Part shown: positions 10,320 through 51,590 of the stretch, in pieces
Layout of the letters: the number at the start of each line of letters is the position of its first letter
Numbering within the stretch: position 1 is the first letter of the stretch
IMG/VR virus record: IMGVR_UViG_3300036859_000764
Span: 1-51,590 of that record
Source of the DNA: a virus
Lineage: Duplodnaviria > Caudoviricetes
Length of the DNA: 51,590 nucleotides
Reading direction: 5' to 3' (one strand)
Notes under the pieces: generated by a model
The model's database searches: none
Seen by the model: only the letters and a program-made list of their open reading frames with translations
What the model was told of the DNA's origin: nothing
Translations under genes and position numbers: made by a program

Positions 10320-10549
10320 CAGTACACCCGCCCGCGCACTTCCATCTGCGCAAGAATCCTGAGCCGTGCTCGCTCGACCCGATCCTCCCGACGCTGGTCC
10401 TCGCGACGACACCCGAGGAGGTAGGCGCTCAGCCATACACCGGCCGCCACTTCGCTGGCGAAGCCGCCCACGAAGAAGCCGCTCGAGGCAACCAGACAGA
10501 ACGTGCCGCCCACGTCCTGCGTGATAGTCCAGCCGCTGGACATCTCCAT
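10319..10549 (-). CDS. Small hypothetical protein
   Basis: TGATG coupling to the portal stop. Confidence 0.5.
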   Translation of the reverse strand: MEMSSGWTITQDVGGTFCLVASSGFFVGGFASEVAAGVWLSAYLLGCRREDQRREDRVERARLRILAQMEVRGRVY

Positions 10550-12102
10550 CACGCCGCCGACGCTCCCGCCGGCTGGCGCGTCCCCGCGTCCGGCGTCCCG
10601 TCCACCGTCTGGGGCTTCCCGTTGCCGAGCGCCTTCTTCGTCTTCTCCAGTGCCGTCGCGTTGGCCGCCGCCATGGCCTTCCGCTCGCGGTCGGCCGTCT
10701 CCGCCTGGATCTCCTTCTGCTCGTCGTCGGGATCCACCGACGTCCCGCTGATCTTCTCGATCACCTGGAGGAACACCTTCCGGGCCGTCTTCTGGGAGAT
10801 CATCTCCGCCGCGACCGCCGCCTCGAGCGCCGGTTCCAGCTTCACGGCCGCCTCCGCCGCGCGCCCCATGTCGCGCTCGCGCACGGGCGACAGGTCCGCG
10901 GTGAGCGTCACCGCACCTTCGCTCCGCTTGGGGAGGCCCATGCCCTCCTGCTTCTCGACCAGGTTGTCGTAGGCGTACCAGAGGAGCTGATTGAACATGC
11001 AGCGCGTGAGCGTCTGCCAGGCCTCGAGGGTCTTGTAGGCGACGTCCGTCTGGTCGCCGGCGGTGGATCGGTTGGCGTCGCCTCCGTTGCCGTACCAGGT
11101 CTCGGGCAGCGACTTCCCGCCCCGGATGTGGTTCGCGATCACCCGCTGGAGGTCGCCCGCGTAGTTGGTCCCGAAGCCGGGTGTGGCCGCCGTGAGCTTG
11201 CCCTTCTCGTTGTGTCCGAAGATCCCGCCGGGCTTGGCGAGCTCGGTCCGCAGCTCCTGGACCCGCTTCTTGATCGCGCCGTCGTCTCCGCCCTCGAGCA
11301 GCAGGTCCCAGACGACCTGGTTCTGGAGAAGGGCGCGGTCTACCTGGGAGAACATGAACTGGTCGTGGGAGTCGAGGAAGTCGGCCGGCGCGAGCAATTC
11401 CGACTGCCCGCGCATGGCGTTCAGCATCAGCCCGTTCCGCCAGTAGAAGCACTCGCCCTCGAGGCGTTCGGTCTCGGGGTTGATCCGGATGATCACCTTG
11501 GGCGTCGGCGGGCCCATGTTCTTCGAGATGAGGACGGTCCCTGGCACCATCGAGGACTCGCCCAGAGGGAGGACGTTGGCCACGCGCATCGAGTCGATGT
11601 AGTCGAGGGTCGGGACGCCGGTGGTTTGGTTCTCGTCGGCGATGACGAGGCAGAGCTCGCCCGTCACCATGAACGTCGCCAGGTACTCGCGCCCGCGATA
11701 CCGGATGCTGTGAGCCGGGTGATCCCAGAAGCGATCGAGCTCAGTTTTCGCCTTTGCCGCGAGGTCCTTCGCCTGCTGGGGCGACGTGCCCTCCATCTTC
11801 TCGGGGTCGAACTCGATCGAATAGCCGACCTCGGCACCGACCACCAGATCAACGCGCACGTCGACCAGCCACTTCCCGAGCGGGTTCGTCGTGTGGAGGT
11901 AGTGCGCGACCTGGGCTTGGCTTTCCTGGCTCATCGGGCTGAGGTCGCGCATGAGCTGGCCATTCTTCGTGGTCCCGGTCAGGCGCCGGTAGCCTTGGAG
12001 CTGCGGCTCGGTGCCGGTGCCCCAGTCGCCGAGGGCCGTCCCGCTCAGGGCCTCGAAGATCCGCTTCGCGATCGACTTCCGAACCTCCGCGAGGCGTCCC
12101 AT
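10549..12102 (-). CDS. Portal protein
   Basis: 517 aa between terminase and gpF; NPLGKWLVD, GQSELL and GGDANRSTA motifs. Confidence 0.85.
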   Translation of the reverse strand: MGRLAEVRKSIAKRIFEALSGTALGDWGTGTEPQLQGYRRLTGTTKNGQLMRDLSPMSQESQAQVAHYLHTTNPLGKWLVDVRVDLVVGAEVGYSIEFDPEKMEGTSPQQAKDLAAKAKTELDRFWDHPAHSIRYRGREYLATFMVTGELCLVIADENQTTGVPTLDYIDSMRVANVLPLGESSMVPGTVLISKNMGPPTPKVIIRINPETERLEGECFYWRNGLMLNAMRGQSELLAPADFLDSHDQFMFSQVDRALLQNQVVWDLLLEGGDDGAIKKRVQELRTELAKPGGIFGHNEKGKLTAATPGFGTNYAGDLQRVIANHIRGGKSLPETWYGNGGDANRSTAGDQTDVAYKTLEAWQTLTRCMFNQLLWYAYDNLVEKQEGMGLPKRSEGAVTLTADLSPVRERDMGRAAEAAVKLEPALEAAVAAEMISQKTARKVFLQVIEKISGTSVDPDDEQKEIQAETADRERKAMAAANATALEKTKKALGNGKPQTVDGTPDAGTRQPAGASAA

Positions 12103-12287
12103 CAGATGCCCGCCGGCCGCGGGTCGATGACGACCTGGTGGTTCGGGCAGACCAGCTGCCGCCCGACCTGGGTCCAGCCCCCGGGAACGATGGGGCTCGA
12201 CGTGGCCATCCCGAACGCCACCTCGGCCTGGTCCTCATGCCGCCGATCGCAGATGTCACAGACGAACCGAAGGATCTGAACGATCAC
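12102..12287 (-). CDS. Small Zn-binding protein
   Basis: CDIC...PGGW...VCPNH; coupled to both neighbours. Confidence 0.6.
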   Translation of the reverse strand: MIVQILRFVCDICDRRHEDQAEVAFGMATSSPIVPGGWTQVGRQLVCPNHQVVIDPRPAGI

Positions 12288-13777
12288 GACGCCCTCCCAT
12301 ACCGGGCCCGGAGCGGGCGCCCATAGTTGGCCCGCGTGTGGGCCACCGTCTCCGCCGATTCGGTCGCCGCGTCGATCTCTCCGGTGAGCTTGTTGAAGGC
12401 TCCGGACGCGCCGTCGATCTGATCCATGACCCCGTGCTCGCCGTCGAAGTTCTGGGCCTCGCGGAGGAACGCCTCGAGCGCCGTCACGCCCTGCGGGTCG
12501 GCTCCGAGAGGGTCGAGTAAATCGACGTTGCCGGCTTCAACCTGGGCGGACAGCGGGCCCGCGCGCGCGAGCTTCGTGCCGGTGACCCGCTCGGCGTGAA
12601 CCGTGAAGCCGGCGAGGCTGCGCACCGTGTTCTCGGCGCTCTCCTTCCCGCCGCTGCCAGGCTCCTGCTCCACCCAGATAGCCACATTCCCGCGGGGGCG
12701 GTCCGAGCGGGCCGTCTGCAGGATCACCGTCTCGCGGTTGCCGGCCGACCACTGGCCGCGGACGATGTCGGCTATCACGAACCGCCCGTTCGCGCGCTTC
12801 CCCATCAGGACGCCGGCGGAGAACTTGCCGCCGCCTTCGGTCCCGGCCTTGTCCCAATAGCGCACCCAGGACACGACATCGGACGGGATCGCACGGAGAA
12901 ACGACTTGAACCACGCCCGGTTGAAGACCTTCCCGGCGGTCGCCTTCACGTTCCAGTTTCCCCCGAGGAGCCGCTCGCGCTCGACGAGTGGCAGCGCCAT
13001 CAGCGAGGCGCGATAGCCGGGGTCGGCCAAGTCGAGCGCCGGGTTGTCCGCCAGCGTGGCCGGAATGAACGTCAGCGACTTCGGCATCGAGCCCGGATAC
13101 TGCTTCACCAGCTCGGCGCGGCTGTCACCCCAGAAGAGTTGCTCGCGCAGGCGCACGAACCACCGGATCACGCCGGATCGCTCGGGGATGGCGTAGCCTG
13201 TCCGTGGGTCGATCCACCACTGGATGAGCCGATGGAGCCAGCCCCCGATCGGATCGTCGTCGGGTACCGGGTTGCAAGTCGCGCGGATGTACGGGCGCAC
13301 GCCGGCGCGGGCCGAGCGGTTGCGGCTGAGCATGAACCAGAACTGCGGCTCCTCGAACTCCTCGAGCTGGTCGAAGCCGAGCATCGGGATCTGCGACCCG
13401 GACCAGGAGAAGCGGTCCTTCGCGTGCTGCATGTGGGAGAACTTGACTGTCATCCCACTGGGGAAGATGTATTCGAGCTCGTTCTCGCGCGGGTACGCTC
13501 CGAGGGGCGGATAGACCTCCTGGGCCTCGTCCCAGAGCCCGCCCTCGTTCGTGATCTGCGGATACGTGCGCCGGAAGATGACCGCGCCGAAGCGTGCGTT
13601 TCCGACGTGTCGGATCGGCTCGATCAGGAGGGACCACGTCTTCCCGGCGCCGGCTGCGCCTCCCCCGATCACGATGTCCGCCGTGGACGCGAGGATGGCT
13701 TCCTGCGGCCCGGGCTGCGGGCCCACGATGGTCGGCTCGGTCGCGACCTCGACCGGCTCCTCGAGGGCGGCGATCAC
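12284..13777 (-). CDS. terL: Terminase large subunit
   Basis: PQPGPQ, Walker A GGAAGAGKT, GFDQLEEF, ATCNP; nuclease motifs RYWDKAGT, EQEPGSGGK, DQIDGASGAF. Confidence 0.95.
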   Translation of the reverse strand: MIAALEEPVEVATEPTIVGPQPGPQEAILASTADIVIGGGAAGAGKTWSLLIEPIRHVGNARFGAVIFRRTYPQITNEGGLWDEAQEVYPPLGAYPRENELEYIFPSGMTVKFSHMQHAKDRFSWSGSQIPMLGFDQLEEFEEPQFWFMLSRNRSARAGVRPYIRATCNPVPDDDPIGGWLHRLIQWWIDPRTGYAIPERSGVIRWFVRLREQLFWGDSRAELVKQYPGSMPKSLTFIPATLADNPALDLADPGYRASLMALPLVERERLLGGNWNVKATAGKVFNRAWFKSFLRAIPSDVVSWVRYWDKAGTEGGGKFSAGVLMGKRANGRFVIADIVRGQWSAGNRETVILQTARSDRPRGNVAIWVEQEPGSGGKESAENTVRSLAGFTVHAERVTGTKLARAGPLSAQVEAGNVDLLDPLGADPQGVTALEAFLREAQNFDGEHGVMDQIDGASGAFNKLTGEIDAATESAETVAHTRANYGRPLRARYGRAS

Positions 13778-14232
13778 TCAGTCTTCTCCCGGCCGTTCGA
13801 CGGGATCCGGTAGAGGGTCACCTGGGCCTTCACCGGCCCACCGTCCGGGCCCTCGTGAATGTGCCGGTCCTTCAGCTTCCCGAGGGCCTTGCCTTGGCGG
13901 TGCAGCGCGGCGTCTACGTCGTGGATCATGCGGAGGATCTTGCCCTTCCCGTCGGTCTCGATCCGCGACGGGAGCTCGTAGCGTGCGATGCTGGCGTTCC
14001 GTGCTTCCCACTCCTCGCCGGACATGGCCTCCTCGGCGTATTTCTTCACGAGCTCCCGATACTCCGGATTGCGCCGCCACTCCGCCACGTCGACCCCGCC
14101 CTCGGCTCGGCGCCCAGTCTTGCCGGCGCGTCGGGCGATCTCCTTATTCGACAGGCCGAGGGCGTCGGCCTTGGCCGCACGCCGCCTCATCGCCGGTGTC
14201 ATCTTTTCGTACTTGGTCCGCTTCGTTCGCAA
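13774..14232 (-). CDS. terS: Terminase small subunit (start uncertain)
   Basis: HTH-like GLSNKEIARRAG, C-terminal HEGPDGGPV; overlaps the terL start. Confidence 0.75.
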   Translation of the reverse strand: MRTKRTKYEKMTPAMRRRAAKADALGLSNKEIARRAGKTGRRAEGGVDVAEWRRNPEYRELVKKYAEEAMSGEEWEARNASIARYELPSRIETDGKGKILRMIHDVDAALHRQGKALGKLKDRHIHEGPDGGPVKAQVTLYRIPSNGREKTE

Positions 14233-14235
14233 GGT

Positions 14236-14529
14236 TCAGTTCGCCAATATGTCCACGCCGAGGAGCATGACGAGACCGAGGACGTCCGCGCCGGGCGTCG
14301 ACGTGACGGCACAGCTCACGATGTAGCGCACGCCGTCCGTGCCGCTGCTGATCTGCACCGAGACGACGTTGCCCTCGAGCGTGGGCGAGCCGATCACCAG
14401 TCCGGACGTGAGAGATGTGACGCCGTTGATGGCGCCAACGGAGTCGCCGGGCTTGAGCTTCGTGGTGAAGTCGAAGGAGTAGGTCTGTTTCTCCGCCGGC
14501 TGCTTCACGCGCCGCGCCACTTCGCTCAT
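14236..14529 (-). CDS. Fibre-tail adaptor-like small Ig-type protein
   Basis: KQPAEKQTYSFDF...VQISSGTDGVRYIVSCAVTS matches the K-x-P-x-x-x-x-x-Y-x-F-D-[FW] adaptor pattern; GGAG RBS. Confidence 0.7.
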   Translation of the reverse strand: MSEVARRVKQPAEKQTYSFDFTTKLKPGDSVGAINGVTSLTSGLVIGSPTLEGNVVSVQISSGTDGVRYIVSCAVTSTPGADVLGLVMLLGVDILAN

Positions 14530-15029
14530 AGCTCCCTCTCGATAGCTGGCCAGCCGGAGCCCTGGATGTTGCCCCACCCGGTTCCGAAGATCGCACCCGC
14601 GCGCGTCGCGACAATCGGGTCTGCGGCCGGGGTGACGTTGCCCTCGGAGACGTCGCTCGTAAGCAGGACCACCTCGGAGAGAACCCGGTCGACCGCCTTG
14701 CTCACGACGTCGTCGAGGACCAGCGCCTCCACGAGGACCCGCACTGCAGCGATCACCCGCGAGAGGCTGTCGACCATGGTCACGACCTCGGACAGCGGCT
14801 TGGTCATGACCTTCGAGACCGCGGCGGCCAGGGTCGTCACCTCGAGGAGCGGCGCCTTCGTCATCACCTTCGTCGCGTTGGCCACGAGCGCGACCACATC
14901 AGTGAGGATCCGGGTCATGGTCGCCGTCCGGACGTCGACGAGCGCCACCGTCTCCGTGAGCTCCTGGCTGAACGCCCCGCTCGAGAAGAAGAAGAAATAG
15001 CGCTCGGCCGTGACGTTGGCGTCGTTCAT
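14526..15029 (-). CDS. Fibre scaffold-like protein with six 18-20 aa repeats
   Basis: Repeats ELTETVALVD, ILTDVVALVA, PLLEVTTLAA, PLSEVVTMVD, VLVEALVLDD, VLSEVVLLTS. Confidence 0.65.
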   Translation of the reverse strand: MNDANVTAERYFFFFSSGAFSQELTETVALVDVRTATMTRILTDVVALVANATKVMTKAPLLEVTTLAAAVSKVMTKPLSEVVTMVDSLSRVIAAVRVLVEALVLDDVVSKAVDRVLSEVVLLTSDVSEGNVTPAADPIVATRAGAIFGTGWGNIQGSGWPAIEREL

Positions 15030-15829
15030 CGACAGCCGACCCCCATGAGGCTCTGCACCTGACACGCGACGTCACGGAGTGCGAGCATCGCCGAAGCACA
15101 GTCGGCGGCCGCGTGCGTTGGATCGCTCGCTGCGGAGGTCGCCTCCGTAGCGATGCGCGACTCGCCGCGCGCGCCCATGGACGTCGCCGCCGTGCCTGTG
15201 TTCGCCGTGCTCGTGGTGGTGCTGCCGCCGAAGCCCACATAATCGGCATCAGCGGTGTAGGTCGTGACGTTCGACTCGCAGGCCGTCCCGCGGACGAACA
15301 GGTACGGAGCAGAGAGTCCGGTCGCGTCGGTCATAGAGCCGGGATCCGCACCGTCATTGGCGAGCCCGTTACTCCCAGGAGCCAGGGAGACGCTGCCATT
15401 TACCGTGATCGTGAACTCGTCGCACGTACCGGCCTTGGCGGGGGTTCCCAAGAAGTCGACGGTAACTGTTCCTCCGGACGTGAGCTGGAAACGAGCTCGC
15501 GTGTACCAGATGCTGGCACAGGCACCGTTGCGAACGACGGAGGTCTGCATGTTGCAGAACTCCATGCCCTTCTCCCAAGTGTTCCCAGCGGAGTCCGTCA
15601 CGCTCGTGAGCTGACCGTTGTCCCCGTCCGTCGTACCGGTCCCGGTCTCGTCGTGGGCGATCACGCATACACCGACGTTCCCGGCCTCCAGCGTCGCGGT
15701 CGTGGTGAAGACGATCTGGCTGTCCTGGGTGGTCTCGTTGCCAACGGCGAACGTGCCGACACGGGCCCACGTAGCCCACGCCTGAAGTGGTAGCGAGACC
15801 AGAGCGAGCGCCAGAAGAAGGCGTCTCAC
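15026..15829 (-). CDS. Exported beta-rich fibre/adhesin-like protein, 267 aa
   Basis: GTG start overlaps the previous stop. Signal peptide MRRLLLALALVSLPLQAWA; SVTDSAGNTW motif; 8 Cys; C-terminal SLMGVG. Confidence 0.75.
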   Translation of the reverse strand: MRRLLLALALVSLPLQAWATWARVGTFAVGNETTQDSQIVFTTTATLEAGNVGVCVIAHDETGTGTTDGDNGQLTSVTDSAGNTWEKGMEFCNMQTSVVRNGACASIWYTRARFQLTSGGTVTVDFLGTPAKAGTCDEFTITVNGSVSLAPGSNGLANDGADPGSMTDATGLSAPYLFVRGTACESNVTTYTADADYVGFGGSTTTSTANTGTAATSMGARGESRIATEATSAASDPTHAAADCASAMLALRDVACQVQSLMGVGCR

Positions 15830-17331
15830 GGGGTCTCGATTACGAAGCCGATGTTTCCTGAAAGCTGCGTCGCGGCTGACGTGATGATGCACAGGCTGTC
15901 CTGAACGGTCTCTGTGCGCCCGATCTCGAATCCGGCACCGCCGAGCACGATCCCTCCGCCCGCCGGGAAGTTGAATCCTTCTGCAGCAGTGACCCCGCCA
16001 AAGACGCCAGCCGAGGACGTTCCGCACGTAGCGCCGGTCCCGGCGATGAGGGTCACGTTGTTGGCCCCGGCCGTGAACAGGACCAGCGAACACACGTAAA
16101 CGTGCTGGCTCGCCACTCCCGTTGCGAGCAGCACCGTCGTAGCGGTGACGATGTCGATCGGGACGAATGTGATGTTCTCGTTGTTGCACTTGCTCCCAGC
16201 GTTCCGCACGACGAGGCCGCGGGCGGCAGTCGCTGGCGCAGAGATCGCCGAGTCGATCTTGTTCCCGGCGCTGTCTGTCAGATACGCGGACGAGACGTTC
16301 AGGCTGGCCAGAGGCGTCGACGTCGGCAGGATCTTCACCGTCAGGGTGGCGGCCCCGGTCAGGGCGGGATTCAGCCGGATCCGCACATGCGTGAGACCCG
16401 GCCAGGAGCCCAGGAAGAGCGCGTTGCCCGCGGCGACCGCGTAGTTGTTTCCGACCAACGGCTGAAGTGGCGCGGCGGCGCTATGCACGACGGCGATCAG
16501 GGCGTAGACGTAGGTGCTCCCACCGTCGTCGCTGCCCTCGAAGTTGATCGTACCGGCGGAGAAGGAGCCGCCGGTTACGTTTGCCGTCATCGTGACGTTG
16601 GAGTAGCCGAGCGCTCCGGTCGCCTGGACCAGCGTCGTGTTAGAGCCCGTGGCGCTCGTCCAGGCAGCAGAGGCCGACGTGGTGGGCCTAGCGTCGCCGG
16701 TCAGCAGGTTCCGCGAGCTATCCGTGCGGAGCGTCTGCACGTTTCCGGCGTCGTCCTTGCCGGCGATCATCACCGGCGCGGTGACTGCGGGCTGTCCGTC
16801 GGGGACCGGTCCGGCCACGGGGATCGGGTTGTTCATCACGATCACGCCCGGCGAGGTGCTCGCGGTCGTAGCCGCCATCGAGATGTTCGCTGTCCCGGAA
16901 CCAACGATCACGACACTGAGACGCAGCCGGAAATACGAGAACCCGCCGACCGGGACGTGCATCTCGAGTGGGTCCTGGTTCAGGTTGAAGCCAGTCGACA
17001 CCGTGTTGTAGAAGTCGAGCGAGCCGTGGCACGAAGCGAAGATCAGGTTGTCGTGGGCGCACTCGAAGAGCGTGGTGCCCTGCGTGATGTCCACGCCCGG
17101 GTTCGTGACTCGGAAGATGATCGCTACAGTCGAATATCCGCGTACGTCGAGATACGGGGTCGCCGCCGGCAGCGTCGTGTTCACGCCTGTCGCACTCGTC
17201 CAGGCCGCCGTCATGGAGTCCGTGGTCCGGTGAATCCCTTCTACGACTTGGTCCCCGTACCGGCCGAAGCGCTGGGCGTATGCTGGCCCGGCGACCAGGA
17301 GAGCGAGAGCGACGAGCAGAAACCTCTTCAT
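15826..17331 (-). CDS. Exported multi-domain beta-sandwich fibre/spike-like protein, 501 aa
   Basis: Signal peptide MKRFLLVALALLVAGPAYA; a duplicated AAWTSATGxNTTL domain; 6 Cys. Confidence 0.75.
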   Translation of the reverse strand: MKRFLLVALALLVAGPAYAQRFGRYGDQVVEGIHRTTDSMTAAWTSATGVNTTLPAATPYLDVRGYSTVAIIFRVTNPGVDITQGTTLFECAHDNLIFASCHGSLDFYNTVSTGFNLNQDPLEMHVPVGGFSYFRLRLSVVIVGSGTANISMAATTASTSPGVIVMNNPIPVAGPVPDGQPAVTAPVMIAGKDDAGNVQTLRTDSSRNLLTGDARPTTSASAAWTSATGSNTTLVQATGALGYSNVTMTANVTGGSFSAGTINFEGSDDGGSTYVYALIAVVHSAAAPLQPLVGNNYAVAAGNALFLGSWPGLTHVRIRLNPALTGAATLTVKILPTSTPLASLNVSSAYLTDSAGNKIDSAISAPATAARGLVVRNAGSKCNNENITFVPIDIVTATTVLLATGVASQHVYVCSLVLFTAGANNVTLIAGTGATCGTSSAGVFGGVTAAEGFNFPAGGGIVLGGAGFEIGRTETVQDSLCIITSAATQLSGNIGFVIETP

Positions 17332-17332
17332 C

Positions 17333-17677
17333 TCAGGGGACCTCGAAGTAAGAGCCCATGGCGCGCGGTGCGGTAGTGGTGTGCGCGCCATCGATCGCGA
17401 CCTGGTAGCTCTCGTCGGTCGTACCGAGCACGAACGGGTAGGTGATCGTCAGCCAGCCCTTCTCGCCCGCCGCAAGCACGAGGCCACCGGGGAGCGGAAT
17501 GTCGATCGACCCCGCCGTCTTGTGGAACCGATGCGAGAACGTGTGCAGGGCGGTGTCGAGGTTCTCGACCCAGCACGAGAGCACCTCGCGCTTGTTGCTG
17601 CCGGTCGGCGCGCCGACGACGTTGATGAACGTCGCGCCTGTCAACGTGATCGTGCCGCCATTCGCCAGCGTCGCCAT
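17333..17677 (-). CDS. Small beta-sandwich spike-base-like protein, no signal peptide
   Basis: GGAGG RBS, 114 aa, all-beta pattern. Confidence 0.65.
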   Translation of the reverse strand: MATLANGGTITLTGATFINVVGAPTGSNKREVLSCWVENLDTALHTFSHRFHKTAGSIDIPLPGGLVLAAGEKGWLTITYPFVLGTTDESYQVAIDGAHTTTAPRAMGSYFEVP

Positions 17678-17689
17678 GCCGCCCTCCGA

Positions 17690-18280
17690 TCAGTCGACGT
17701 CCACTTTCCACCTGATGAGCAGCGAGTCCCCGTTGGCCACGTTTATCGCCGAGAACACCTGGCGCGCGCCCAGCGTCCCGGCCGACGACGCATTCAGCAG
17801 GCAGCTCTCGGTCACGGCGAAGGAACCGGTGAAGTTGTAGGTCACCTCGACCTGGGCCGTGTCGTTCGTGACGTCCGTCGTCACCCGCGTCGCTGAACCG
17901 TTGGCTCGCGCTCCGCCGTTCGTGGAGATTTCCGTCTGACAAGTAGTGTCCGCAACGTTCGCGGCGGTCACACCGGTCCCGATCGCGATCCACGTGAAGG
18001 CCGCCTCACCGCCCGATCCGTTGATGCGCGATGCCACGCCCGCGGCGCCGGCGTTCGTGACGAGGTTGTGGATGTGGCGCTCGGTCTTGATCCGGCCCGC
18101 GCGGTCCTTCGCGATCAGGTCGATGTGGCCGTGGAGCTTGACCGGCTCTCTTCCTGCCGACGGCGGCTGGTCCTTGACGACTTTCCCCCGGCCCCCACTG
18201 AGGATGCTCGGGTCATACGTGCAGCCGCCGCTGGCGAGCAGCAGGGCAGCAATGGCGACCAGGATCTTGAGACGCTTCAT
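17690..18280 (-). CDS. Lipoprotein with a tail-collar/fibre-like domain
   Basis: MKRLKILVAIAALLLASGG-C20 lipobox, then HNLVTNAG...IAIGTG...VTE...GTLGARQVFSAINVANGDSLLIRW, a pattern I recognise from phage collar/fibre proteins. Confidence 0.75.
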   Translation of the reverse strand: MKRLKILVAIAALLLASGGCTYDPSILSGGRGKVVKDQPPSAGREPVKLHGHIDLIAKDRAGRIKTERHIHNLVTNAGAAGVASRINGSGGEAAFTWIAIGTGVTAANVADTTCQTEISTNGGARANGSATRVTTDVTNDTAQVEVTYNFTGSFAVTESCLLNASSAGTLGARQVFSAINVANGDSLLIRWKVDVD

Positions 18281-18507
18281 TTCCCATCCTCCGTGCCGAC
18301 CGTTTCCTCGAGGGTCAGCTCGTGCTTCTTGCCCCCGGTTGGCGGGGTTGCCGGCGGGGTTGCCGGCGGGACCGTGACTTGATCGAGAGCGCGTCGGCGC
18401 AGCAGCTCGGCGATGAGCCGGAGGACGATCGTCGTCCGCCCGGGAGGGGCCTTCGCCAATTCCCGCTTCTGCAGGTCCTCGAGCTCGGCGTCGGTCAGAT
18501 CTCTCAT
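18277..18507 (-). CDS. Small protein with PPAT linker and a C-terminal fibre-repeat-like motif
   Basis: ATGA overlaps on both sides; ends HELTLEETVGTEDGK. Confidence 0.6.
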   Translation of the reverse strand: MRDLTDAELEDLQKRELAKAPPGRTTIVLRLIAELLRRRALDQVTVPPATPPATPPTGGKKHELTLEETVGTEDGK

Positions 18508-19085
18508 CGTGGCCTTGTGGGTGACGGGAGAAGCAGCGCCATGGAGAGGGCGACGAGGGACGTCGGCGAGCCCTTCCGGAGCTTGGCGCCGGCCAGGAGC
18601 CTGATACCCTTGGCCACCGGCGTCGGCTTCTCGTTCAGCCAGTTCTGGAACACGACCGGGGTGGGAGTCGGGCCATCCTCGACCCACACGGTCGCGCAGA
18701 TCTCCACGCCGAGCGGTTCGCCGGGCTTGGCCCACCCGGCAGCGAAGCACCACACGGTGGCCCCGATCGGGATCAGCTGGCCTGGGCCTGGCAGAGCTAT
18801 CTCCTTGTGCATCTCCTTTGCCCCGCTGACGGACCCGTGGTAGTTGCCGATGACGACCCGGTGCGCGCCGTCGATGGTCGTCATGACGAGCTGGCAGAGG
18901 AGTTCATGGACCGACGCCTTCGCGGCGGATTGGAAAGAGAGGCCACGCGCGACCGCGCCGGCGGGGAAGGTGGCGGCCGAGATCCCGTTGCTCGCGGGCG
19001 CGGATGGCCCGGCGGAGATCCACGGGATCCGGCCTGGAATCGGGTGCCACTCGGCGTTCAGATGGACCGGCTTCAACGTGCTCAT
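18504..19085 (-). CDS. Hypothetical protein
   Basis: 193 aa, coupled to both neighbours. Confidence 0.65.
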   Translation of the reverse strand: MSTLKPVHLNAEWHPIPGRIPWISAGPSAPASNGISAATFPAGAVARGLSFQSAAKASVHELLCQLVMTTIDGAHRVVIGNYHGSVSGAKEMHKEIALPGPGQLIPIGATVWCFAAGWAKPGEPLGVEICATVWVEDGPTPTPVVFQNWLNEKPTPVAKGIRLLAGAKLRKGSPTSLVALSMALLLPSPTRPR

Positions 19086-19822
19086 CGTGGCCTCTCGCCC
19101 GCCTTCTCAAGCGCGCTCACCGCGTCGCCGTCCTCGTTGAACAGCCGTTCGAGGGTGCCGAAGTCGATCAGGAAGTGGCCGGGCCGCACGTGCGCGCGGA
19201 CCCATCGACCGGTCGCGGCCGCATTCCAGTCCGGGCCCCAGGAGTTGACGGCCAAGGCAACGCCGCGCTTCATGTCGACCCCGCGCAGCAACCACTCGTG
19301 GCCGCCGGCGATCGGGCTCGTCGAGCCGATCTTCACGAAGCCCTCCGGCGTCGGCTTGAACATGGACCGATACCAGTTGGTCCCGATCATCACCGGCCCG
19401 CGCGTGAGGACCCACAGCAGCGCGTCGCGCATCTCGGCCGCCCAGAGGTACTCGCTGATCAGGCCGCGCTTCTCGATGGCCTTCGCGACGCCGGTCCCGC
19501 TCGAGCCGGCCTGGAGCTTCTGGTTATCGGCCTCCGTCGACTCGATGTCGTTCTCGAGGTACTCGTCAAAGAGCACGACCTCGCGGTAGAGCTGCCACGG
19601 GTTTAGGAAGCCGCGGTGCCGGATCGGCGCGGCGTGGATCATGTGTGCGCCGGCGTGCGCGGTGCACGTCGCGGTCTTGCCCTGGTCGAGCGGTTCGCCG
19701 AGGAAGTCCCACGTCTTCAGGTCCGGGACCGGGAGGGTCGGCGGGGGCTCGGCTAGTAGCCGCCGCATCGGGTGTGCGGAGTTGCGTCTGTCGATCGACG
19801 GGAGACGGCCGAGGCCTGGCAT
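19082..19822 (-). CDS. Papain-like (C1) cysteine peptidase
   Basis: DQGKTATCTAHA (Gln/Cys), GGHEWLLRG (His) and NSWGPDW (Asn); GGAGG RBS. Confidence 0.9.
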   Translation of the reverse strand: MPGLGRLPSIDRRNSAHPMRRLLAEPPPTLPVPDLKTWDFLGEPLDQGKTATCTAHAGAHMIHAAPIRHRGFLNPWQLYREVVLFDEYLENDIESTEADNQKLQAGSSGTGVAKAIEKRGLISEYLWAAEMRDALLWVLTRGPVMIGTNWYRSMFKPTPEGFVKIGSTSPIAGGHEWLLRGVDMKRGVALAVNSWGPDWNAAATGRWVRAHVRPGHFLIDFGTLERLFNEDGDAVSALEKAGERPR

Positions 19823-20064
19823 CAGCACTCCCTCCACACGCCGCGCTCGAGGTAGCCGTGCCAGACCGTCGTGCCGCCCTCATCCTCCGACGTGATCAGG
19901 ATCGACGGCGACACCGTGATCGTCCCGTCTTCGTGTTCGGTGACGGTGTGGTTCGCGAGGCCACCGAGATTTCCCTTCGGCGGGCGTGCATGCCAGATAC
20001 CGCGGACCTTTCCGTAGTCGCCCGGGGCGAAGCTGCTGTCGTCTGGCCGGCGACGGCCGATCAT
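19822..20064 (-). CDS. DUF6527-like small protein
   Basis: DGTITVSPSIL...WHGYLERGVW. Confidence 0.7.
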   Translation of the reverse strand: MIGRRRPDDSSFAPGDYGKVRGIWHARPPKGNLGGLANHTVTEHEDGTITVSPSILITSEDEGGTTVWHGYLERGVWREC

Positions 20065-20198
20065 CGGTTCTTCCTCCGGCTACGTCGGCTCCGCTTCGCA
20101 CGCTGAGCACGTCGGACATGCGCATTCCGTCTCTTCGACTCCCGCGGCCGGCTGTGCCGTACCGCACGCGGGATATCGATGGCGACCTCGACGGTCAC
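20061..20198 (-). CDS. Small, very basic protein (45 aa)
   Basis: GTGA/ATGA overlaps on both sides; Arg-rich. Confidence 0.45.
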   Translation of the reverse strand: MTVEVAIDIPRAVRHSRPRESKRRNAHVRRAQRAKRSRRSRRKNR

Positions 20199-20509
20199 GG
20201 CTTCTCCGTCGCATTGGAGCCCGCGCCTCCGCCGGGCGGCGCCTTCGCCGCGGTCACGGCAGCCGGTGCCGCCCTCGTGAACCCGAACACGCCCGCGGCC
20301 GACGTAGACACCGCGATCCAACCTGCGAAGTAGGCGAAGGCCTGGGTGCGCTCGAACGTCCCGACGGAGTAGCCCCAAAAGGCCACGCCGAAGAGCGCCA
20401 AGCCGAGGACGGCGACCGGGCCCCAGGTGTCCCGCAGGCCCGCCCATTTCAACAATTGCACGAGGGCAACGACGGCCGCCGATACGCTGATGATGGCCTG
20501 GCCGTCCAT
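20195..20509 (-). CDS. Holin
   Basis: 104 aa with about three hydrophobic segments (VVALVQLLKWAGL...), in the lysis region; GAGG RBS. Confidence 0.75.
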   Translation of the reverse strand: MDGQAIISVSAAVVALVQLLKWAGLRDTWGPVAVLGLALFGVAFWGYSVGTFERTQAFAYFAGWIAVSTSAAGVFGFTRAAPAAVTAAKAPPGGGAGSNATEKP

Positions 20510-20727
20510 CAGTCCGTGTCCTCGGTGTAGCGACGGCCGAGCTCTGCCATGAGCGCGTCGGCCCAGGCAACGGCCGCCCGCGCGTTGCTTTGCGGATCCA
20601 TCTCCACGACCGAACCGCGGGTGGCCGTCGCGAATCCGGCCAGGATGTCGAGGGCGTAGCGTTCCCTGGTCAATGCCCGAGTGTCTCGTTTCGGCCGCGG
20701 CGGCGGCGGCATCAATGGGGCGCCCAT
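20509..20727 (-). CDS. Small conserved phage protein
   Basis: LTRERYALDILAG...AVAWADALMAEL pattern. Confidence 0.65.
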   Translation of the reverse strand: MGAPLMPPPPRPKRDTRALTRERYALDILAGFATATRGSVVEMDPQSNARAAVAWADALMAELGRRYTEDTD

Positions 20728-20978
20728 CAGGGCTTCCGCTCCGCGAGCATCTTGTCGACGCGCTCATCGCACGCCTTCCGGCCATCCGCCTCGGCTTGGT
20801 TGAGACTCCTGGCCATCGAATCCGTCGCGGCGCTTTCGGTGACGAGCTTCGCCTCGCACGCCGCGAGCTTCTCCGTCACCTCCACAGGCGTCGGCTCACG
20901 ACGCGCGAGAAAGACGCCGGCCCCCACCCCCAGGAGGCCGGCGAGGACCCAATGGACCCACGGTGCAAGCCGCTTCAT
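20727..20978 (-). CDS. Membrane-anchored coiled-coil protein (i-spanin-like)
   Basis: N-terminal TM helix, coiled coil and two Cys; close to the holin. Confidence 0.5.
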   Translation of the reverse strand: MKRLAPWVHWVLAGLLGVGAGVFLARREPTPVEVTEKLAACEAKLVTESAATDSMARSLNQAEADGRKACDERVDKMLAERKP

Positions 20979-21520
20979 CGTTTCTCCTCGCCTCCGACGG
21001 TCGCGTTCCACGCGGGGCCGCACTGAACGTCCGGCGTGTAGTCGCCGCCGAACACGACGCCGTAGGCCGCCGGTTCTCCGCCGACGCGGACGACTACCTC
21101 GTAGCGCCTGAGCAGCACGGCCAGCGCCACGCGCCAGCCCTTGGGTCGGATCGTCGAGCGAATGAACGGATCGTCGATCGTCTGCCCGGAGATTTTCGTG
21201 AGCGGGCCGTGGCGCCCCTGCATTCCTTCGCTGATCGTCACGTGGTACTGGCCGCAGTTGTCCTTTCTGGCCGTGTCCGCGATGGTCTCGGCGACCGACG
21301 GCAGCAACGGCTGGAGCGCCTGGTTGAAGGTGTACACCTGGAGGAAGACGTCGGCGCCGGAGCCGATCCGCTTCCGCTCTTCGGCGGTGAATCGCCAGCG
21401 CGTCATCACGCGGCCGTCGGCGTGCTTCAGCGAAGGCAGCGGCAGATACTCTGGCTGGTCCTTGGCATAGACCACCGGGGACCAGCCCTCGAGCTCGAGG
21501 TCGACTGCGACAGGCTCCAC
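20975..21520 (-). CDS. Hypothetical protein
   Basis: AKDQPEYLPLP...TRWRFTAEER motif; 181 aa. Confidence 0.7.
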   Translation of the reverse strand: MEPVAVDLELEGWSPVVYAKDQPEYLPLPSLKHADGRVMTRWRFTAEERKRIGSGADVFLQVYTFNQALQPLLPSVAETIADTARKDNCGQYHVTISEGMQGRHGPLTKISGQTIDDPFIRSTIRPKGWRVALAVLLRRYEVVVRVGGEPAAYGVVFGGDYTPDVQCGPAWNATVGGEEKR

Positions 21521-21523
21521 GGC

Positions 21524-22435
21524 CTACGCCCCGCGACCCACGCGCAGGAACTCGATCGGCGTCCCGTCGCGCAGCGTGAGCGGGACGACGGCCGGGCCCT
21601 CGCCGTCATCGTAGTCGGGCCCGACGATCCGCGGATTCATGATCTTGATCCCCTGCCCCGGGTCGGTGCGTCCTCGGAAACGCGGGCTGCAGCCCTTGTT
21701 CGCCTTGCGGTACTCGCGCGAGATGTCGACGGACCACTCGCCGTGTCCCGCCTGGTCCGGATCGGGCCCGGCCTCGAAGAGTGGCGAGCAGGGCGCGATG
21801 TCGGGCTGGCCCTGGTCGTTGGCCGCGGCCGACTTCGCGGTGTCGTTGGGCGGCTCTTCCCACGACGGGTCGTTGGGGCCGAACGCCTTCCCGTTCTGAT
21901 CCTTCGGCGTGAAGTCGGTCTCGAAGCGGATGTCGTCGACCTGCTTCTGCTTCAGCGGCGTCCCGCTGTCGTCGCCGGCGAGCCACCGCAGGCTCGCCTC
22001 GCCCACGCGCGGGCCGAGCGGTCCGCCGACGGTCGCGCCGGTGAGGATGTAACGGCCGTCGCGGATGAACCGCAGTTCACTCGGCGGCTTCGGCGGTTTC
22101 ACCGGAGGCGCGGGCGGGACGGGCGGCGCGCCGGGCTCGGGAACGGGCACGGGTACCGGAGCGGGCGCGGGAGGCTTCGGTCCGAACTGCCCCATCACGA
22201 ACGCAATCAGCAGCGCCCACTGCTCGGGCGTCAGCGACAGGCCGCGGACTGGCGACGCGCCGCGCCGCTTGCGCTGCCGCTCGAGGATGTCCTCGACCAT
22301 GTCCTCCGCGCGATTTACGATCTTGCGCTGCGCTGGATCGCGGACGTCGAGTCCCATGAGCTTCGCGAAGTCGACGCCCTTCGTCGCCGGCGCTGCCGTC
22401 GCGCGATTCGTGCTGGCCTTGGCCTTCTTCTTCAT
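21524..22435 (-). CDS. Protein with a hydrophobic segment, Pro-rich linker and C-terminal domain
   Basis: GGAGG RBS; PKPPAPAPVPVPVPEPGAPPVPPAPPVKPPKPP. Confidence 0.7.
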   Translation of the reverse strand: MKKKAKASTNRATAAPATKGVDFAKLMGLDVRDPAQRKIVNRAEDMVEDILERQRKRRGASPVRGLSLTPEQWALLIAFVMGQFGPKPPAPAPVPVPVPEPGAPPVPPAPPVKPPKPPSELRFIRDGRYILTGATVGGPLGPRVGEASLRWLAGDDSGTPLKQKQVDDIRFETDFTPKDQNGKAFGPNDPSWEEPPNDTAKSAAANDQGQPDIAPCSPLFEAGPDPDQAGHGEWSVDISREYRKANKGCSPRFRGRTDPGQGIKIMNPRIVGPDYDDGEGPAVVPLTLRDGTPIEFLRVGRGA

Positions 22436-22445
22436 CACGCCTCCT

Positions 22446-22763
22446 TCAAGATTCGCGAATGAACTCGAACCTCGCCGCCGACGCCCCGTCCTTCCGGAAC
22501 TCGGCACCGAGCATCACGGACCACGTTCCCTTCCCGTCCTTGTCCAAGACGCGGAGCCCTACCGCCAGCGTGGCCACGTCCTTCTGGACCGTGACGTTGG
22601 CGCGGAAGCTGGTCCTGTCGGGCGGGAACTTCTCGATGTGCCGGTCGATAAGATCGGCTATCGACTCGCCGCTGCCGAGGAGCGTGCGGAAGAAGCCGGG
22701 GACCGGGCGGTGCAGCTCGTAGAGCTTCCCGGCGGCGTCGGCCCGGAAGTAGCGGTTACTCAC
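22446..22763 (-). CDS. Hypothetical protein
   Basis: 105 aa, GGAG RBS, GTGA overlap. Confidence 0.65.
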   Translation of the reverse strand: MSNRYFRADAAGKLYELHRPVPGFFRTLLGSGESIADLIDRHIEKFPPDRTSFRANVTVQKDVATLAVGLRVLDKDGKGTWSVMLGAEFRKDGASAARFEFIRES

Positions 22764-41593: not shown

Positions 41594-41755
41594 ATGGCAC
41601 GCAAGGACCGCACCGCCCAGAACATGGCCCGGAAGCGCTGGAACAAGGCAACCGCCGAGCAGCGTCTGGAGACCGGGCGCCGGCTCGCGGAAGCGAGGGC
41701 GCTGGCGAAGCAGCGGCGTGAAGCCGCCGCTCAGGCCGAGGCCGAGGTCGCCTAG
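41594..41755 (+). CDS. 53-aa basic helical protein at the repressor position
   Basis: MARKDRTAQNMARKRWNKATAEQRLETGRRLAEARALAKQRREAAAQAEAEVA; has its own promoter; stop overlaps the integrase stop. Confidence 0.7.
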   Translation: MARKDRTAQNMARKRWNKATAEQRLETGRRLAEARALAKQRREAAAQAEAEVA

Positions 41756-42936
41756 CCCTTCTTCAGTGGGACCACCTTCGGGATCTGGCCCTCCCGCTTC
41801 GCCCGATCCGCGTCCAGCCTCTCCGCGAATGCCTTCAACGAGTCCGGATCCCCGCCGATGTACCCGGCGTGCGTGGCCTGGTCGTCGTGGCCCGCGGCCG
41901 CCATCCGGACCGCGAGCGGCGCGCCGAGCGCATCCCACCGCCGGAGCACCGTGCGGCGGATATCGTGCGGGACCTTCGCCCCGGACCACGGCCCGGACCG
42001 ACCCTCGAGCTTTCCGAAGCCGGCCCGCCGGCAGGCCGAGGACCAGGCGCGCCGCATGTCCCCGAGCGGCGACCCGTTCATGCGGCAGAACACCCAGGGG
42101 ATGATCCTCCCCGCGTCCTGCTCGAGGACGTCGATCCATAGCCGCTGGTCGATGAGCAACGACCGGAGACGCTCCGTGAAAGGGAAGACCCGCGCCTTGC
42201 CGCTCTTCGAGTGTCCCGGGTCAAGGTGCAGCCACCCGCCCTCGAAGTCCACGTCCGTCCACTTCCGCGTCTTCAACTCCGACTGCGCGCGCCACCCGAC
42301 CTCATCGGCCACGAGGTAGAACTGGCACCACCACGTGGGGAGCTGCGCGAGGATCCCTTGCAGCTCGTCCGGCCGGATCGTCTGCTGGCGCCGCTCGACG
42401 TGGATCACGGGAAACTTCGGAATCGCCACGATAAGCCCCTGCTCGTGCGCAAGCCCCATCGCCCGGCGCAGACAGCGAAGGTCGAGCGCGATCGTCGAGT
42501 CTCGGTAGGGATGCGCGCGCTGATGCTCTACGTATTCGAGGATGCGCGAACGGTTGATTCTCCCGGCCAGGTCATCCTTCAGGAAGGGGCGCAGCCGGTC
42601 GAACGCCGTCTTGTAGACGAGTTGGGTGTGAGGCTTCAAGACGGCGCACTCCGCGATGGCGACGCGCTCCAAGACCGAGAACATGGTGCGCCGCGGGTCC
42701 TCCTCGAGTCCGGCCAGGACTTCGCCGCGTCGTTTGTCCCCGGCGTCTCGGGCCTCTCTCTGTGTCCTATAGCCGCCGGGCTTCTCGTGTGATCCGCTAC
42801 CGCTGTGCGTCTTGCCGCGGAACGTGAACCGCCAGCTCCAAGTGCCCGCCGTGCGCAGCCGACGCTTCCCGGGATTGTCCGGATCGGGCTCGGTCCAGGT
42901 GGCCCGGAAGACGTGCGTGATTCCTCGGTCGCTCAT
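41752..42936 (-). CDS. int: Tyrosine integrase
   Basis: Arm-binding N-terminus; catalytic R (GWRAQSEL), K (HSKSG), HDIRR, AGH and Y (HAGYI). Confidence 0.92.
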   Translation of the reverse strand: MSDRGITHVFRATWTEPDPDNPGKRRLRTAGTWSWRFTFRGKTHSGSGSHEKPGGYRTQREARDAGDKRRGEVLAGLEEDPRRTMFSVLERVAIAECAVLKPHTQLVYKTAFDRLRPFLKDDLAGRINRSRILEYVEHQRAHPYRDSTIALDLRCLRRAMGLAHEQGLIVAIPKFPVIHVERRQQTIRPDELQGILAQLPTWWCQFYLVADEVGWRAQSELKTRKWTDVDFEGGWLHLDPGHSKSGKARVFPFTERLRSLLIDQRLWIDVLEQDAGRIIPWVFCRMNGSPLGDMRRAWSSACRRAGFGKLEGRSGPWSGAKVPHDIRRTVLRRWDALGAPLAVRMAAAGHDDQATHAGYIGGDPDSLKAFAERLDADRAKREGQIPKVVPLKKG

Positions 42937-51463: not shown

Positions 51464-51590
51464 GGTAGCCCCACTCGGAGCGCAACACGTCCACCGCCTC
51501 CACGATTTTGTGGTCCTGATGCAGCATGCCTCCGGGCCGCGGCCATTCCGGGGTGCCGCTTGGGTGGCCTGATCGAAACGGCGTCGTGGC
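51464..51590. repeat. 127-bp exact terminal overlap (copy 2)
   Basis: Identical to 1-127. Confidence 0.95.

Follow-up and report, generated by a model that had tools for sequence, protein, structure and literature searches.

Why would a tailed phage place export signals on proteins whose domains belong to the virion? Particles of these phages are held to assemble wholly in the cytoplasm, and a signal peptide has been used as an argument against a structural role. The question is raised by a locus in the IMG/VR virus record IMGVR_UViG_3300036859_000764 (Duplodnaviria; Caudoviricetes), which was analysed here in full and is called the window (51,590 bp, estimated completeness 100). Between its lysis genes and the small terminase gene (terS), the minus strand carries seven genes, A to G, and three of them (B, D and E) encode proteins with predicted export signals. 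With a probability of roughly 0.42, we favour the reading that B, D and E are late proteins built from virion fibre and tail domains, which would be translocated and have their site of action in the infected cell's envelope, without being stable components of the particle.

The seven genes are tightly coupled upstream of the terminase, as an earlier sequence-only reading of this DNA had stated. GC content at third codon positions (GC3) is 0.79-0.90 within each gene, similar to that of the neighbouring genes, and successive genes overlap at ATGA or GTGA or are separated by 1-12 nt. In the in-frame upstream extensions of D, E and A, GC3 drops to 0.53-0.60. Hence, these extensions are not coding, and the starts first assigned to the three genes are upheld by both the GC3 contrast and the coupling. 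ATGA overlaps, in which the ATG lies on the preceding TGA, join A to B, E to F and F to G; D and E share a GTGA overlap, C and D are 1 nt apart, and a 12-nt gap with a GGAGGG motif separates B from C. The starts of F (15029) and G (14529) differ from those of the longest open reading frames (ORFs). Moreover, ATGA junctions continue upstream of A, linking it to a gene for a 193-aa protein and the latter to a peptidase-like gene (19082-19837), so that the coupled chain begins two genes earlier and nine genes are chained from the peptidase-like gene through to terS. No sigma-70-like promoter was found across 13500-22600, and terminator-like sites are not in excess there.

Export signals were called by reading the N-termini, by crude leader rules and by comparison with relatives. 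A Sec signal peptide was recognised by positive charge in the n-region, a run of 7-15 uncharged, hydrophobic residues (h-region) and small amino acids at both -3 and -1, all at the true N-terminus. With the starts fixed by GC3 and coupling, such N-termini are found in D, which reads MKRFLLVALALLVAGPAYA followed by Q, and in E, which reads (GTG)RRLLLALALVSLPLQAWA followed by T and has the leader sequence MRRLLLALALVSLPLQAWA. B starts with a lipoprotein-type signal, MKRLKILVAIAALLLASGG-C. The N-termini of A, C, F and G, when read in the same way, are not of the export type. The crude leader rule flags D, and residues 3-27 of this protein weakly resemble the Pfam model of the N-terminal (leader) part of TraW, with an E value of 0.015 that falls short of the cut-off. 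When a lipobox rule was run on every minus-strand start codon, B was the sole match. Measured against the pattern [LVI][ASTVI][GAS]C after an h-region, the putative lipobox of B, A-S-G-G-C, deviates in having Ser at -3 and not Leu, Val or Ile; its close relatives read V-G-G-C, V-S-A-C and I-S-G-C. A strict Sec rule flagged 6 of 60 minus-strand ORFs; besides D and B, these are a membrane protein resembling a spanin and three ORFs read from internal starts. E is missing from that list because a long upstream ORF extension lowered its GC3. Altogether, the three signals pointed out in the sequence-only reading look genuine and are conserved in relatives, and from the sequence we infer that B, D and E are exported.

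The conservation is clearest for D. Its 38 homologues share mainly residues 388-498, that is, the last ~110 residues, and the crude rule detects a leader in 33 of the 39 family members, D included. Among the exceptions, P0011 has a leader by eye, P0007 has one after an N-terminal extension, and P0019 is a leaderless fusion with another N-terminal domain. A small-x-small motif followed by Gln occurs in 23 of the 39 proteins, two of these being doubtful. On viral contigs (n = 17), 14 D genes show a clear leader, one a doubtful leader and two none, and the doubtful one and both lacking it are cut by the contig end. The D-domain protein of locus L033 has no leader at its called start.

As to what D might be, its AlphaFold2 (AF2) model is confident at residues ~60-150 and 380-501 alone, with a predicted local distance difference test score (pLDDT) of ~90 for the second region. 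Compared with the PDB by Foldseek, the model gave YomS as the best chain (6i5o_A, E 1.2e-4, template-modelling (TM) score 0.67 on the target) together with XepA (6i56, E 2e-3 to 6e-3); generic jelly-rolls come close behind, so the fold is not very specific. The predicted fold of D thus appears to be the beta-sandwich of YomS and of the C-terminal domain of XepA. In agreement with this, the named Atlas cluster nearest to D is 'XepA domain-containing', and a precomputed match to PF27453 (XepA) is present on 4 of the 38 homologues, D not being one of them. Among isolated phages, tblastn of D matched one record only; in the podovirus record MW202554.1, the D gene overlaps the end of the portal gene.

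XepA and YomS are encoded by the Bacillus subtilis prophages PBSX and SPbeta, respectively. According to the part of the published report consulted (PMC6834076), XepA lies in the lytic cassette, appears late, is exported past the cytoplasmic membrane, is absent from mature particles and forms a pentameric disc or dumbbell, and its role is still a hypothesis. As far as that source goes, D resembles these PF27453 proteins in being a beta-sandwich protein, presumably late, encoded beside lysis genes and exported by prediction. Unlike them, D has an explicit Sec leader (A-x-A before Q), a long variable middle and a four-cysteine C-terminal domain; in addition, it is paired with a second predicted exported protein, E, in a high-GC phage whose host is probably diderm. 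D is likened to XepA by fold, without a sequence-level match, and the pentameric dumbbell and the cytotoxicity are features of XepA.

The second exported protein, E, has 123 homologues, and the alignment comprises 89 of the 120 that were listed. An N-terminal extension of at least 14 residues is present in 36 of the 89 rows and is signal-like by eye in 31 of them and not in 5. The other 53 rows start with M-A-W/F-x-x-V-G exactly at the predicted mature end, and the predicted cleavage site of E coincides with residue 2 of the leaderless homologues. The AF2 model of E (pLDDT 92.5, predicted TM score 0.90) is matched by 48 BFVD structures (E<=1e-3; query TM no higher than 0.65). Where these carry a name, it is mostly 'minor tail protein', from Mycobacterium and Gordonia phages, and minor tail proteins of phages Hawkeye, Gaia, PP, Tonenili and Tweety are among them; the names derive from annotation, and the models are predicted on both sides. 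Against PDB folds, E gave nothing at E<=1e-3, and weak double-jelly-roll and GH172 rows (TM <=0.25) were not used. A leaderless E domain also makes up the N-terminal part of 647-1205-aa proteins and an inner part of a 1589-aa protein. The alignment has an invariant set of Asp, Glu, Asn and Arg residues (D60, D68, D79, N83, N93, D159, D162, R180, E185, E223 and D243). By tblastn, E matched nothing among isolated phages, and a scan of 185,579 species genomes returned one locus, in an Anaerolineales metagenome-assembled genome.

Two minor observations concern the ends of D and E. The end of E (15026-15065) and those of remote leader-bearing homologues (L045, L054, L056 and L057) read L-x-L-x-G-V-G-C, in many cases preceded at a distance of a few residues by another cysteine, and this shared tail may serve for docking or disulfide formation. 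The last strands of D resemble the first strands of mature E (15838-15930 and 15662-15751; 42% over 31 residues, E ~0.04-0.07).

B, the lipoprotein precursor, matches phrog_5417 (8.2e-15) and phrog_4176, 'tail fiber protein' (1.2e-8), and has 731 homologues at E<=0.001. It is 54-58% identical to four of 16 aligned relatives. Nine of these 16 match PF23140 (Gp80; best E 1e-5), and B itself has no Pfam match at E<=1. In the Atlas, the structure of B aligns with viral clusters (TM 0.76-0.78), including one that is partly Gp80, and the profile of the B alignment found nothing among PDB sequences. Among the nearest 120 of the 731 homologues, 20 have leaders (12 lipobox, 8 Sec-type), and in P0161-P0163, P0165, P0169, P0207 and P0215 the lipobox stands at the same place as in B. 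The B-type protein of L025 matches PF23140 at 29.4 bits (cut-off 27) and carries a transmembrane anchor of ~20 residues in place of the lipobox. B-type genes lie between capsid and connector or collar genes in L004, MW202796.1 and Achromobacter phage CF418P1.

Of the leaderless neighbours of B, G matches PF23148 (Gp77) with an E value of 1.2e-13 and 51.8 bits (cut-off 27) over model positions 1-74 of 84, and more weakly PDB chain 8jou_D (E 0.004) and phrog_4137 (6.1e-9). The earlier label 'adaptor-like' is therefore supported; G belongs by sequence to the Gp77-type adaptor domains and may bind a fibre to the tail. By tblastn, F matched the repeat region of a 1033-aa L004 protein, which follows the B-type gene there, at four staggered places, and L005 at one, in line with its description as a repeat scaffold. 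No search lent support to a further label, 'spike-base-like'. PHROG and Pfam scans gave no family for F, the viral-contig scan gave no relatives of G, and tblastn of F and G against isolated phages found nothing. A complex prediction of three copies of B (residues 40-196, alignment A3) with G scored 0.00, without controls, and weighs neither way on binding. The domain of C has 41 representatives at E<=0.001, including a 1937-aa protein with 20 matched stretches (tandem copies), and is related neither to the protein preceding D in L023 nor to the D alignment. In several loci, a leaderless protein of ~150 aa starting with MADS or MAV precedes D (L023 3921-4391, L024 5828-6319, L026 6333-6761 and L056 6673-7137). 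P0019 is a leaderless fusion of this protein with the C-terminal domain of D; in the window, C occupies the same position with no detectable similarity.

The closest known counterpart of B and G is the fibre apparatus of the Ralstonia podophage GP4 (PDB 8jou), made of the adaptor gp77 (PF23148) and the fibre I protein gp80 (PF23140). G lies above the family cut-off, the B family reaches PF23140 through the nine relatives mentioned above, and L025 has adjacent Gp80-type and Gp77-type genes that are both above the cut-off (30 bits for the latter). Whereas gp77 and gp80 of GP4 are particle proteins, the Gp80-type protein carries a lipoprotein signal in the window and a membrane anchor in L025. 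Moreover, the tail of the window phage is of the tape-measure type, unlike the podovirus tail of GP4. Altogether, the Gp77-like G, the Gp80-like B family and the minor-tail-protein fold of E agree with the earlier view that the mature domains are of virion type.

How such domains relate to their leaders was assessed on maximum-likelihood trees from which the leader columns had been left out. The leader label changes at least 8 times on the E tree (4 changes forced by well-supported branches), a count that 5 doubtful E extensions may inflate, and at least 5 times on the B tree. These multiple gains and losses indicate that the same domain works by either route. B, D and E appear to carry export devices that are kept by selection and re-invented. 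The cysteines follow the leaders to some extent. In 33 of 38 rows, the number of cysteines in the C-terminal domain of D is exactly four. For the E cores, the median is six cysteines when a leader is present and three when it is absent, and the number is even in 33/36 and 24/53, respectively (Fisher p 4.6e-6 for the even numbers). Likewise, 16 of 20 mature parts of leader-bearing B proteins have 2 or 4 cysteines; leaderless B proteins have none in 68/100 and two or more in 7/100 (for two or more, 16/20 versus 7/100, p 2.9e-11). Since the rows are related and independent pairs too few, this contrast is suggestive only; it may rest on few clades, and we rejected cysteine counts as proof of export.

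D and E are also recurrently associated. All five E loci with a leader-bearing E have a D-type gene directly upstream: the upstream gene combines a leader with the D domain in L024 and L025, has the D domain and no visible leader in L033, and in L023 and L026 encodes a large leader-bearing protein with a different C-terminal domain (judged by reading only). In the other 12 E loci, E is leaderless and no D domain occurs in the DNA examined. In addition, the leader-bearing proteins of ~260 aa that follow D in L045, L054, L055, L056 and L057 are remote homologues of E (hhalign 96.5%, E 7.7e-10, 230 columns). Counting L047, which lies on the same contig as L025, the D-E pair is found in 6 of 19 D loci. 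L025 has the complete set: upstream of its terminase lie D and E, both with leaders, a 474-aa repeat protein at the position matching F, the membrane-anchored Gp80-type protein and the Gp77-type protein. Judging by these gene arrangements, D and E are a functional pair. The recurrent pair goes beyond the sequence-only reading, as do the extension of the chain into the lysis region, the temperate nature of the phage and the repeated gain and loss of leaders in the E and B families.

Other clusters of leader-bearing ORFs were noticed in this survey. Around the leader-bearing E of L033 (7693-14790), at least four more ORFs have leader-like N-termini, including a 96-aa cysteine-rich one and a 1022-aa one. 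In L043 (4195-11651), three further leader-bearing ORFs (828, 791 and 87 aa) surround D in what looks like another exported-protein cluster.

If B, D and E act in the envelope, D and E would reach the periplasm via Sec and signal peptidase I, and B would enter a membrane, probably the outer one, via the lipoprotein pathway. The exported proteins would then fold in the periplasm or membrane, probably with disulfide bonds, and domains that other phages carry on the virion would here meet the cell surface from inside, at lysis. They might aid release, or mask or destroy receptors so that progeny and newcomers skip the dying cell. We favour this reading because XepA is reported to behave in this way, because B would be tethered by a lipid in the window and its counterpart by a helix in L025, and because the module abuts the lysis genes and is coupled to them. 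Neither a lipid nor a transmembrane anchor suits a free virion part. The switching between leader-bearing and leaderless forms is also understandable if the domain recognises an envelope component, which could be met outside on the particle or inside through Sec.

Several observations weigh against envelope action. The leaderless G and F stay beside an export-tagged B in two divergent phages, those of the window and L025; this would be expected if they still bind B, which is possible only after compartments mix. The window has no leaderless paralogue of any module protein, B, D and E included, and no other fibre gene: in the PHROG-based reading, the 925-aa gene of the tail block is followed by two small ORFs and an integrase, which confirms the earlier remark that the tail module lacks a stand-alone fibre gene. 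The D-E pair lies between portal and scaffold or capsid genes in L054, L055 and L057, and D follows the portal gene in MW202554.1; genes at such places usually serve the particle or its assembly. For none of the module members was an enzymatic or binding activity identified. A Pfam scan, in a copy that may lack PF27453, gave no XepA match for D, and the D-family profile found nothing among PDB sequences, so that the link to XepA consists of fold and precomputed matches. Finally, independent-pair tests on the cysteines, with only 4 and 5 usable pairs, gave a median p = 1.

The alternative that survives best, although we hold it to be unlikely, is that B, D and E are particle parts that are exported for oxidative folding and picked up via G and F by virions built in the cytoplasm, either between the opening of the inner membrane by the holin and the failure of the outer membrane or just after lysis. 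The retained G and F, the place of D-E in L054, L055 and L057 and the lack of another fibre gene or paralogues all speak for it. So do the kinship of the domains with the GP4 fibre I and adaptor proteins and with minor tail proteins, the leaderless E domain within 647-1205-aa and 1589-aa proteins, and the B-type genes between capsid and connector genes in L004 and MW202796.1. However, a Sec-exported particle protein is not known to us from any tailed phage, and a limited literature search found neither an exported particle protein nor a fibre-like exclusion protein of tailed phages. Moreover, particles containing B would stay attached to membrane debris through its lipid or transmembrane anchor, and XepA, the nearest studied relative of D, is described as absent from particles in the consulted part of its report (PMC6834076). 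One defined form of this scheme comes next in our estimate and is likewise doubtful: fibre or decoration proteins would be exported by the Sec and lipoprotein routes, acquire disulfides in the periplasm and be loaded after the holin acts and before the outer membrane breaks. If true, this holin-gated last assembly step would have left its mark on genomes in the export signals that virion-type domains of two families have acquired several times.

We consider it improbable that the module is a lysogen conversion cassette placing a lipid-anchored adhesin or exclusion device on the lysogen surface. The phage is temperate, the slot between lysis genes and terminase is also that of the lambda lipoprotein gene bor, and T5 Llp shows, as far as the consulted source goes, that a phage lipoprotein can block a receptor. 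Nevertheless, no promoter-like site or terminator excess surrounds the module, the coupling runs without a break out of the lysis region as far as terS, GC3 resembles that of the neighbours, and the D-E pair lies inside head gene clusters in other contigs; together, these features point to late, lytic expression. The sequence-only reading had proposed periplasmic fibres or a lipid-anchored surface structure. Its premises, conserved signals and virion-type domains, have held, and we keep both proposals at the low standing just given.

Least credible, indeed very improbable, is that the hydrophobic N-termini are buried attachment or membrane-insertion segments, as in ejection proteins, or products of wrong starts: the unusual Ser in the B lipobox and the leaderless D-domain protein of L033 would fit, but GC3 shows the extensions upstream to be non-coding and any start further downstream would disrupt the coupling, each of the three N-termini combines positive charge in the n-region with an uncharged h-region and small residues at both -3 and -1, the Gln at +1 recurs in the D family as counted above, cleavage of E at the predicted site would leave a chain that starts in register with its leaderless homologues, and lipobox, Sec leader and membrane anchor are all found on the same B domain.

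Exported phage proteins that act on the host envelope are not without precedent. T5 Llp, according to the part of the source consulted, is a phage lipoprotein that blocks the receptor and protects progeny. Cor of phi80 and N15 and Lom and Bor of lambda are lipoproteins or outer-membrane proteins encoded beside receptor-binding or lysis genes, and they act on the host envelope. Like B, D and E, these proteins are encoded among late or tail genes; they are, however, small single proteins unlike fibre domains, whereas the window has three predicted exported proteins of 196-501 aa with fibre or tail domains, coupled to leaderless adaptor-type ones. No match to the Llp or Cor families was found in Pfam or PHROG scans of the module. 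PblA and PblB of the Streptococcus mitis phage SM1 are, like the module proteins, tail-fibre-like phage proteins that reportedly reach the bacterial surface; unlike B, D and E, they are said to do so without signal peptides, through holin/lysin permeabilisation, and to be particle proteins as well. In signal-peptide or SAR endolysins and virion-associated lysins, one kind of envelope-acting domain is delivered by Sec or on the particle, as described in the consulted part of the XepA report (PMC6834076). Unlike these, B, D and E match no known cell-wall hydrolase fold or family in PHROG and Pfam scans and, for D and E, in Foldseek.

The description of the module as an undescribed system has accordingly to be narrowed, since D is linked to XepA and YomS and exported proteins encoded among late or tail genes, such as T5 Llp, are known. 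On record already were late phage proteins that are exported, such as XepA, and lipoproteins that act on the envelope and are encoded next to fibre genes, such as Llp. New, by the literature searched, are export-tagged forms of the GP4-type fibre I and of the minor-tail-protein fold, a widespread exported D-E pair inside morphogenesis clusters, and a full fibre-like module in which part of the subunits are predicted to be exported. Three virion-type families (GP4 fibre I, the minor-tail-protein fold and the XepA-like sandwich) exist in leaderless and export-tagged forms, with the tag switched several times, and the predicted exported D-E pair travels in head and packaging gene clusters of many uncultivated phages. 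If B, D and E act in the envelope, there may be a widespread class of late proteins made from recycled fibre parts, and XepA, so far lone and unexplained, would gain a family and a testable role. If particle assembly instead has a periplasmic branch, the annotation of phage structural genes would change. Either way, the B, D and E families are concrete targets for particle proteomics and export assays.

Table 1. Features of the module and of its surroundings in the window.
Feature	Position	Strand	Basis and remarks
Large terminase	12284-13777	-	tblastn identity; best match 48% to a Rhizobium phage
Small terminase (terS)	13774..14232	-	downstream border of module; directly upstream of large terminase gene; junction read
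G, 97 aa, Gp77-type (fibre-tail adaptor) domain, no export signal	14236..14529	-	PF23148
F, 167-aa repeat protein, no export signal	14526..15029	-	staggered tblastn to repeat protein of L004
E, 267 aa, predicted Sec-exported	15026..15829	-	all-beta two-sheet domain, invariant acidic residues, L-x-G-V-G-C tail
Putative Sec signal peptide of E (residues 1-19, ending PLQAWA before T)	15773..15829	-	GTG start within GTGA overlap
D, 501 aa, predicted Sec-exported, XepA/YomS-like	15826..17331	-	signal peptide, beta-sandwich ~60-150, poorly modelled middle, four-cysteine jelly-roll ~380-501
Putative Sec signal peptide of D (residues 1-19, ending AGPAYA before Q)	17275..17331	-	N-terminus reading and family conservation
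C, 114 aa, no export signal	17333..17677	-	small domain; PHROG and Pfam scans empty
B, 196-aa putative lipoprotein precursor	17690..18280	-	signal and lipobox, linker of ~35 residues, C-terminal Gp80-type ('fibre I' of GP4) domain
Putative signal peptide and lipobox of B (residues 1-20, ending LLASGG-C)	18221..18280	-	N-terminus reading; lipoboxes in relatives
A, 76 aa, no export signal	18277..18507	-	GC3 0.81 from 18507 vs 0.57 upstream; no PHROG match
193-aa protein, hydrophobic C-terminal stretch	18504..19085	-	GC3 0.87; coupled on both sides; PHROG and Pfam scans empty
Peptidase-like gene, 251 aa	19082..19837	-	phrog_16701 'peptidase' E 9.9e-29; no Pfam match at E<=0.01; context, outside the finding
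Holin candidate	20195-20500	-	phrog_1299, E 7e-4
Membrane-anchored coiled-coil protein, spanin-like by eye	20727-21023	-	N-terminal membrane helix and coiled coil
Integrase	41752-42936	-	phrog_1, E 4.8e-27; after two small ORFs downstream of tail block
925-aa protein	44008-46785	-	tail module, last large gene
Virion structural protein	46790-48877	-	tail module
Weak tape-measure match	48631-51183	-	E 3.7e-4; reached across record ends
Fused protease-capsid protein, 801 aa	5980-8385	-	phrog_29592 1.7e-115; phrog_4523 'major head and protease protein'
Mu-F-like head protein		-	between portal and protease-capsid gene in transcription order
Portal	10549-12102	-	after terminase in order along transcription

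The lysis region next to the module (20000-21100) contains the holin candidate and the membrane-anchored coiled-coil protein, and on the minus strand no small lipoprotein fit for an outer-membrane spanin subunit, B being the sole lipobox ORF. Spanins (Rz/Rz1) pair an inner-membrane-anchored periplasmic protein with an outer-membrane lipoprotein, both made late from genes beside those of holin and endolysin, and the window offers a candidate for the first and a lipobox on B. Outer-membrane spanin subunits are small and encoded in or adjoining the gene of the inner-membrane subunit; B was rejected for this role on account of its size (196 aa), its folded fibre-type domain and its distance of 2.4 kb from the candidate inner-membrane subunit. 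The peptidase-like gene at the head of the coupled chain may encode an endolysin or a processing enzyme.

The rest of the genome is that of a temperate phage, as the integrase indicates. All confident genes lie on the minus strand, the GC content is 65-71%, and no tRNA genes were found in the window; the host of this high-GC phage is probably diderm. An exact direct repeat of 127 bp (1-127 and 51464-51590) ends the record and may represent a circular-assembly overlap rather than physical ends. The 801-aa product matches both 'head maturation protease' and 'major head protein' PHROGs and is thus a fused protease-capsid gene. The best match of the large terminase is Rhizobium phage RHph_TM3_3_3, which otherwise has nothing of note in common with the window. 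Two archaeal Methanoculleus viruses (46.7% identity, 93% of the protein covered) rank among its best tblastn matches after two Rhizobium phages.

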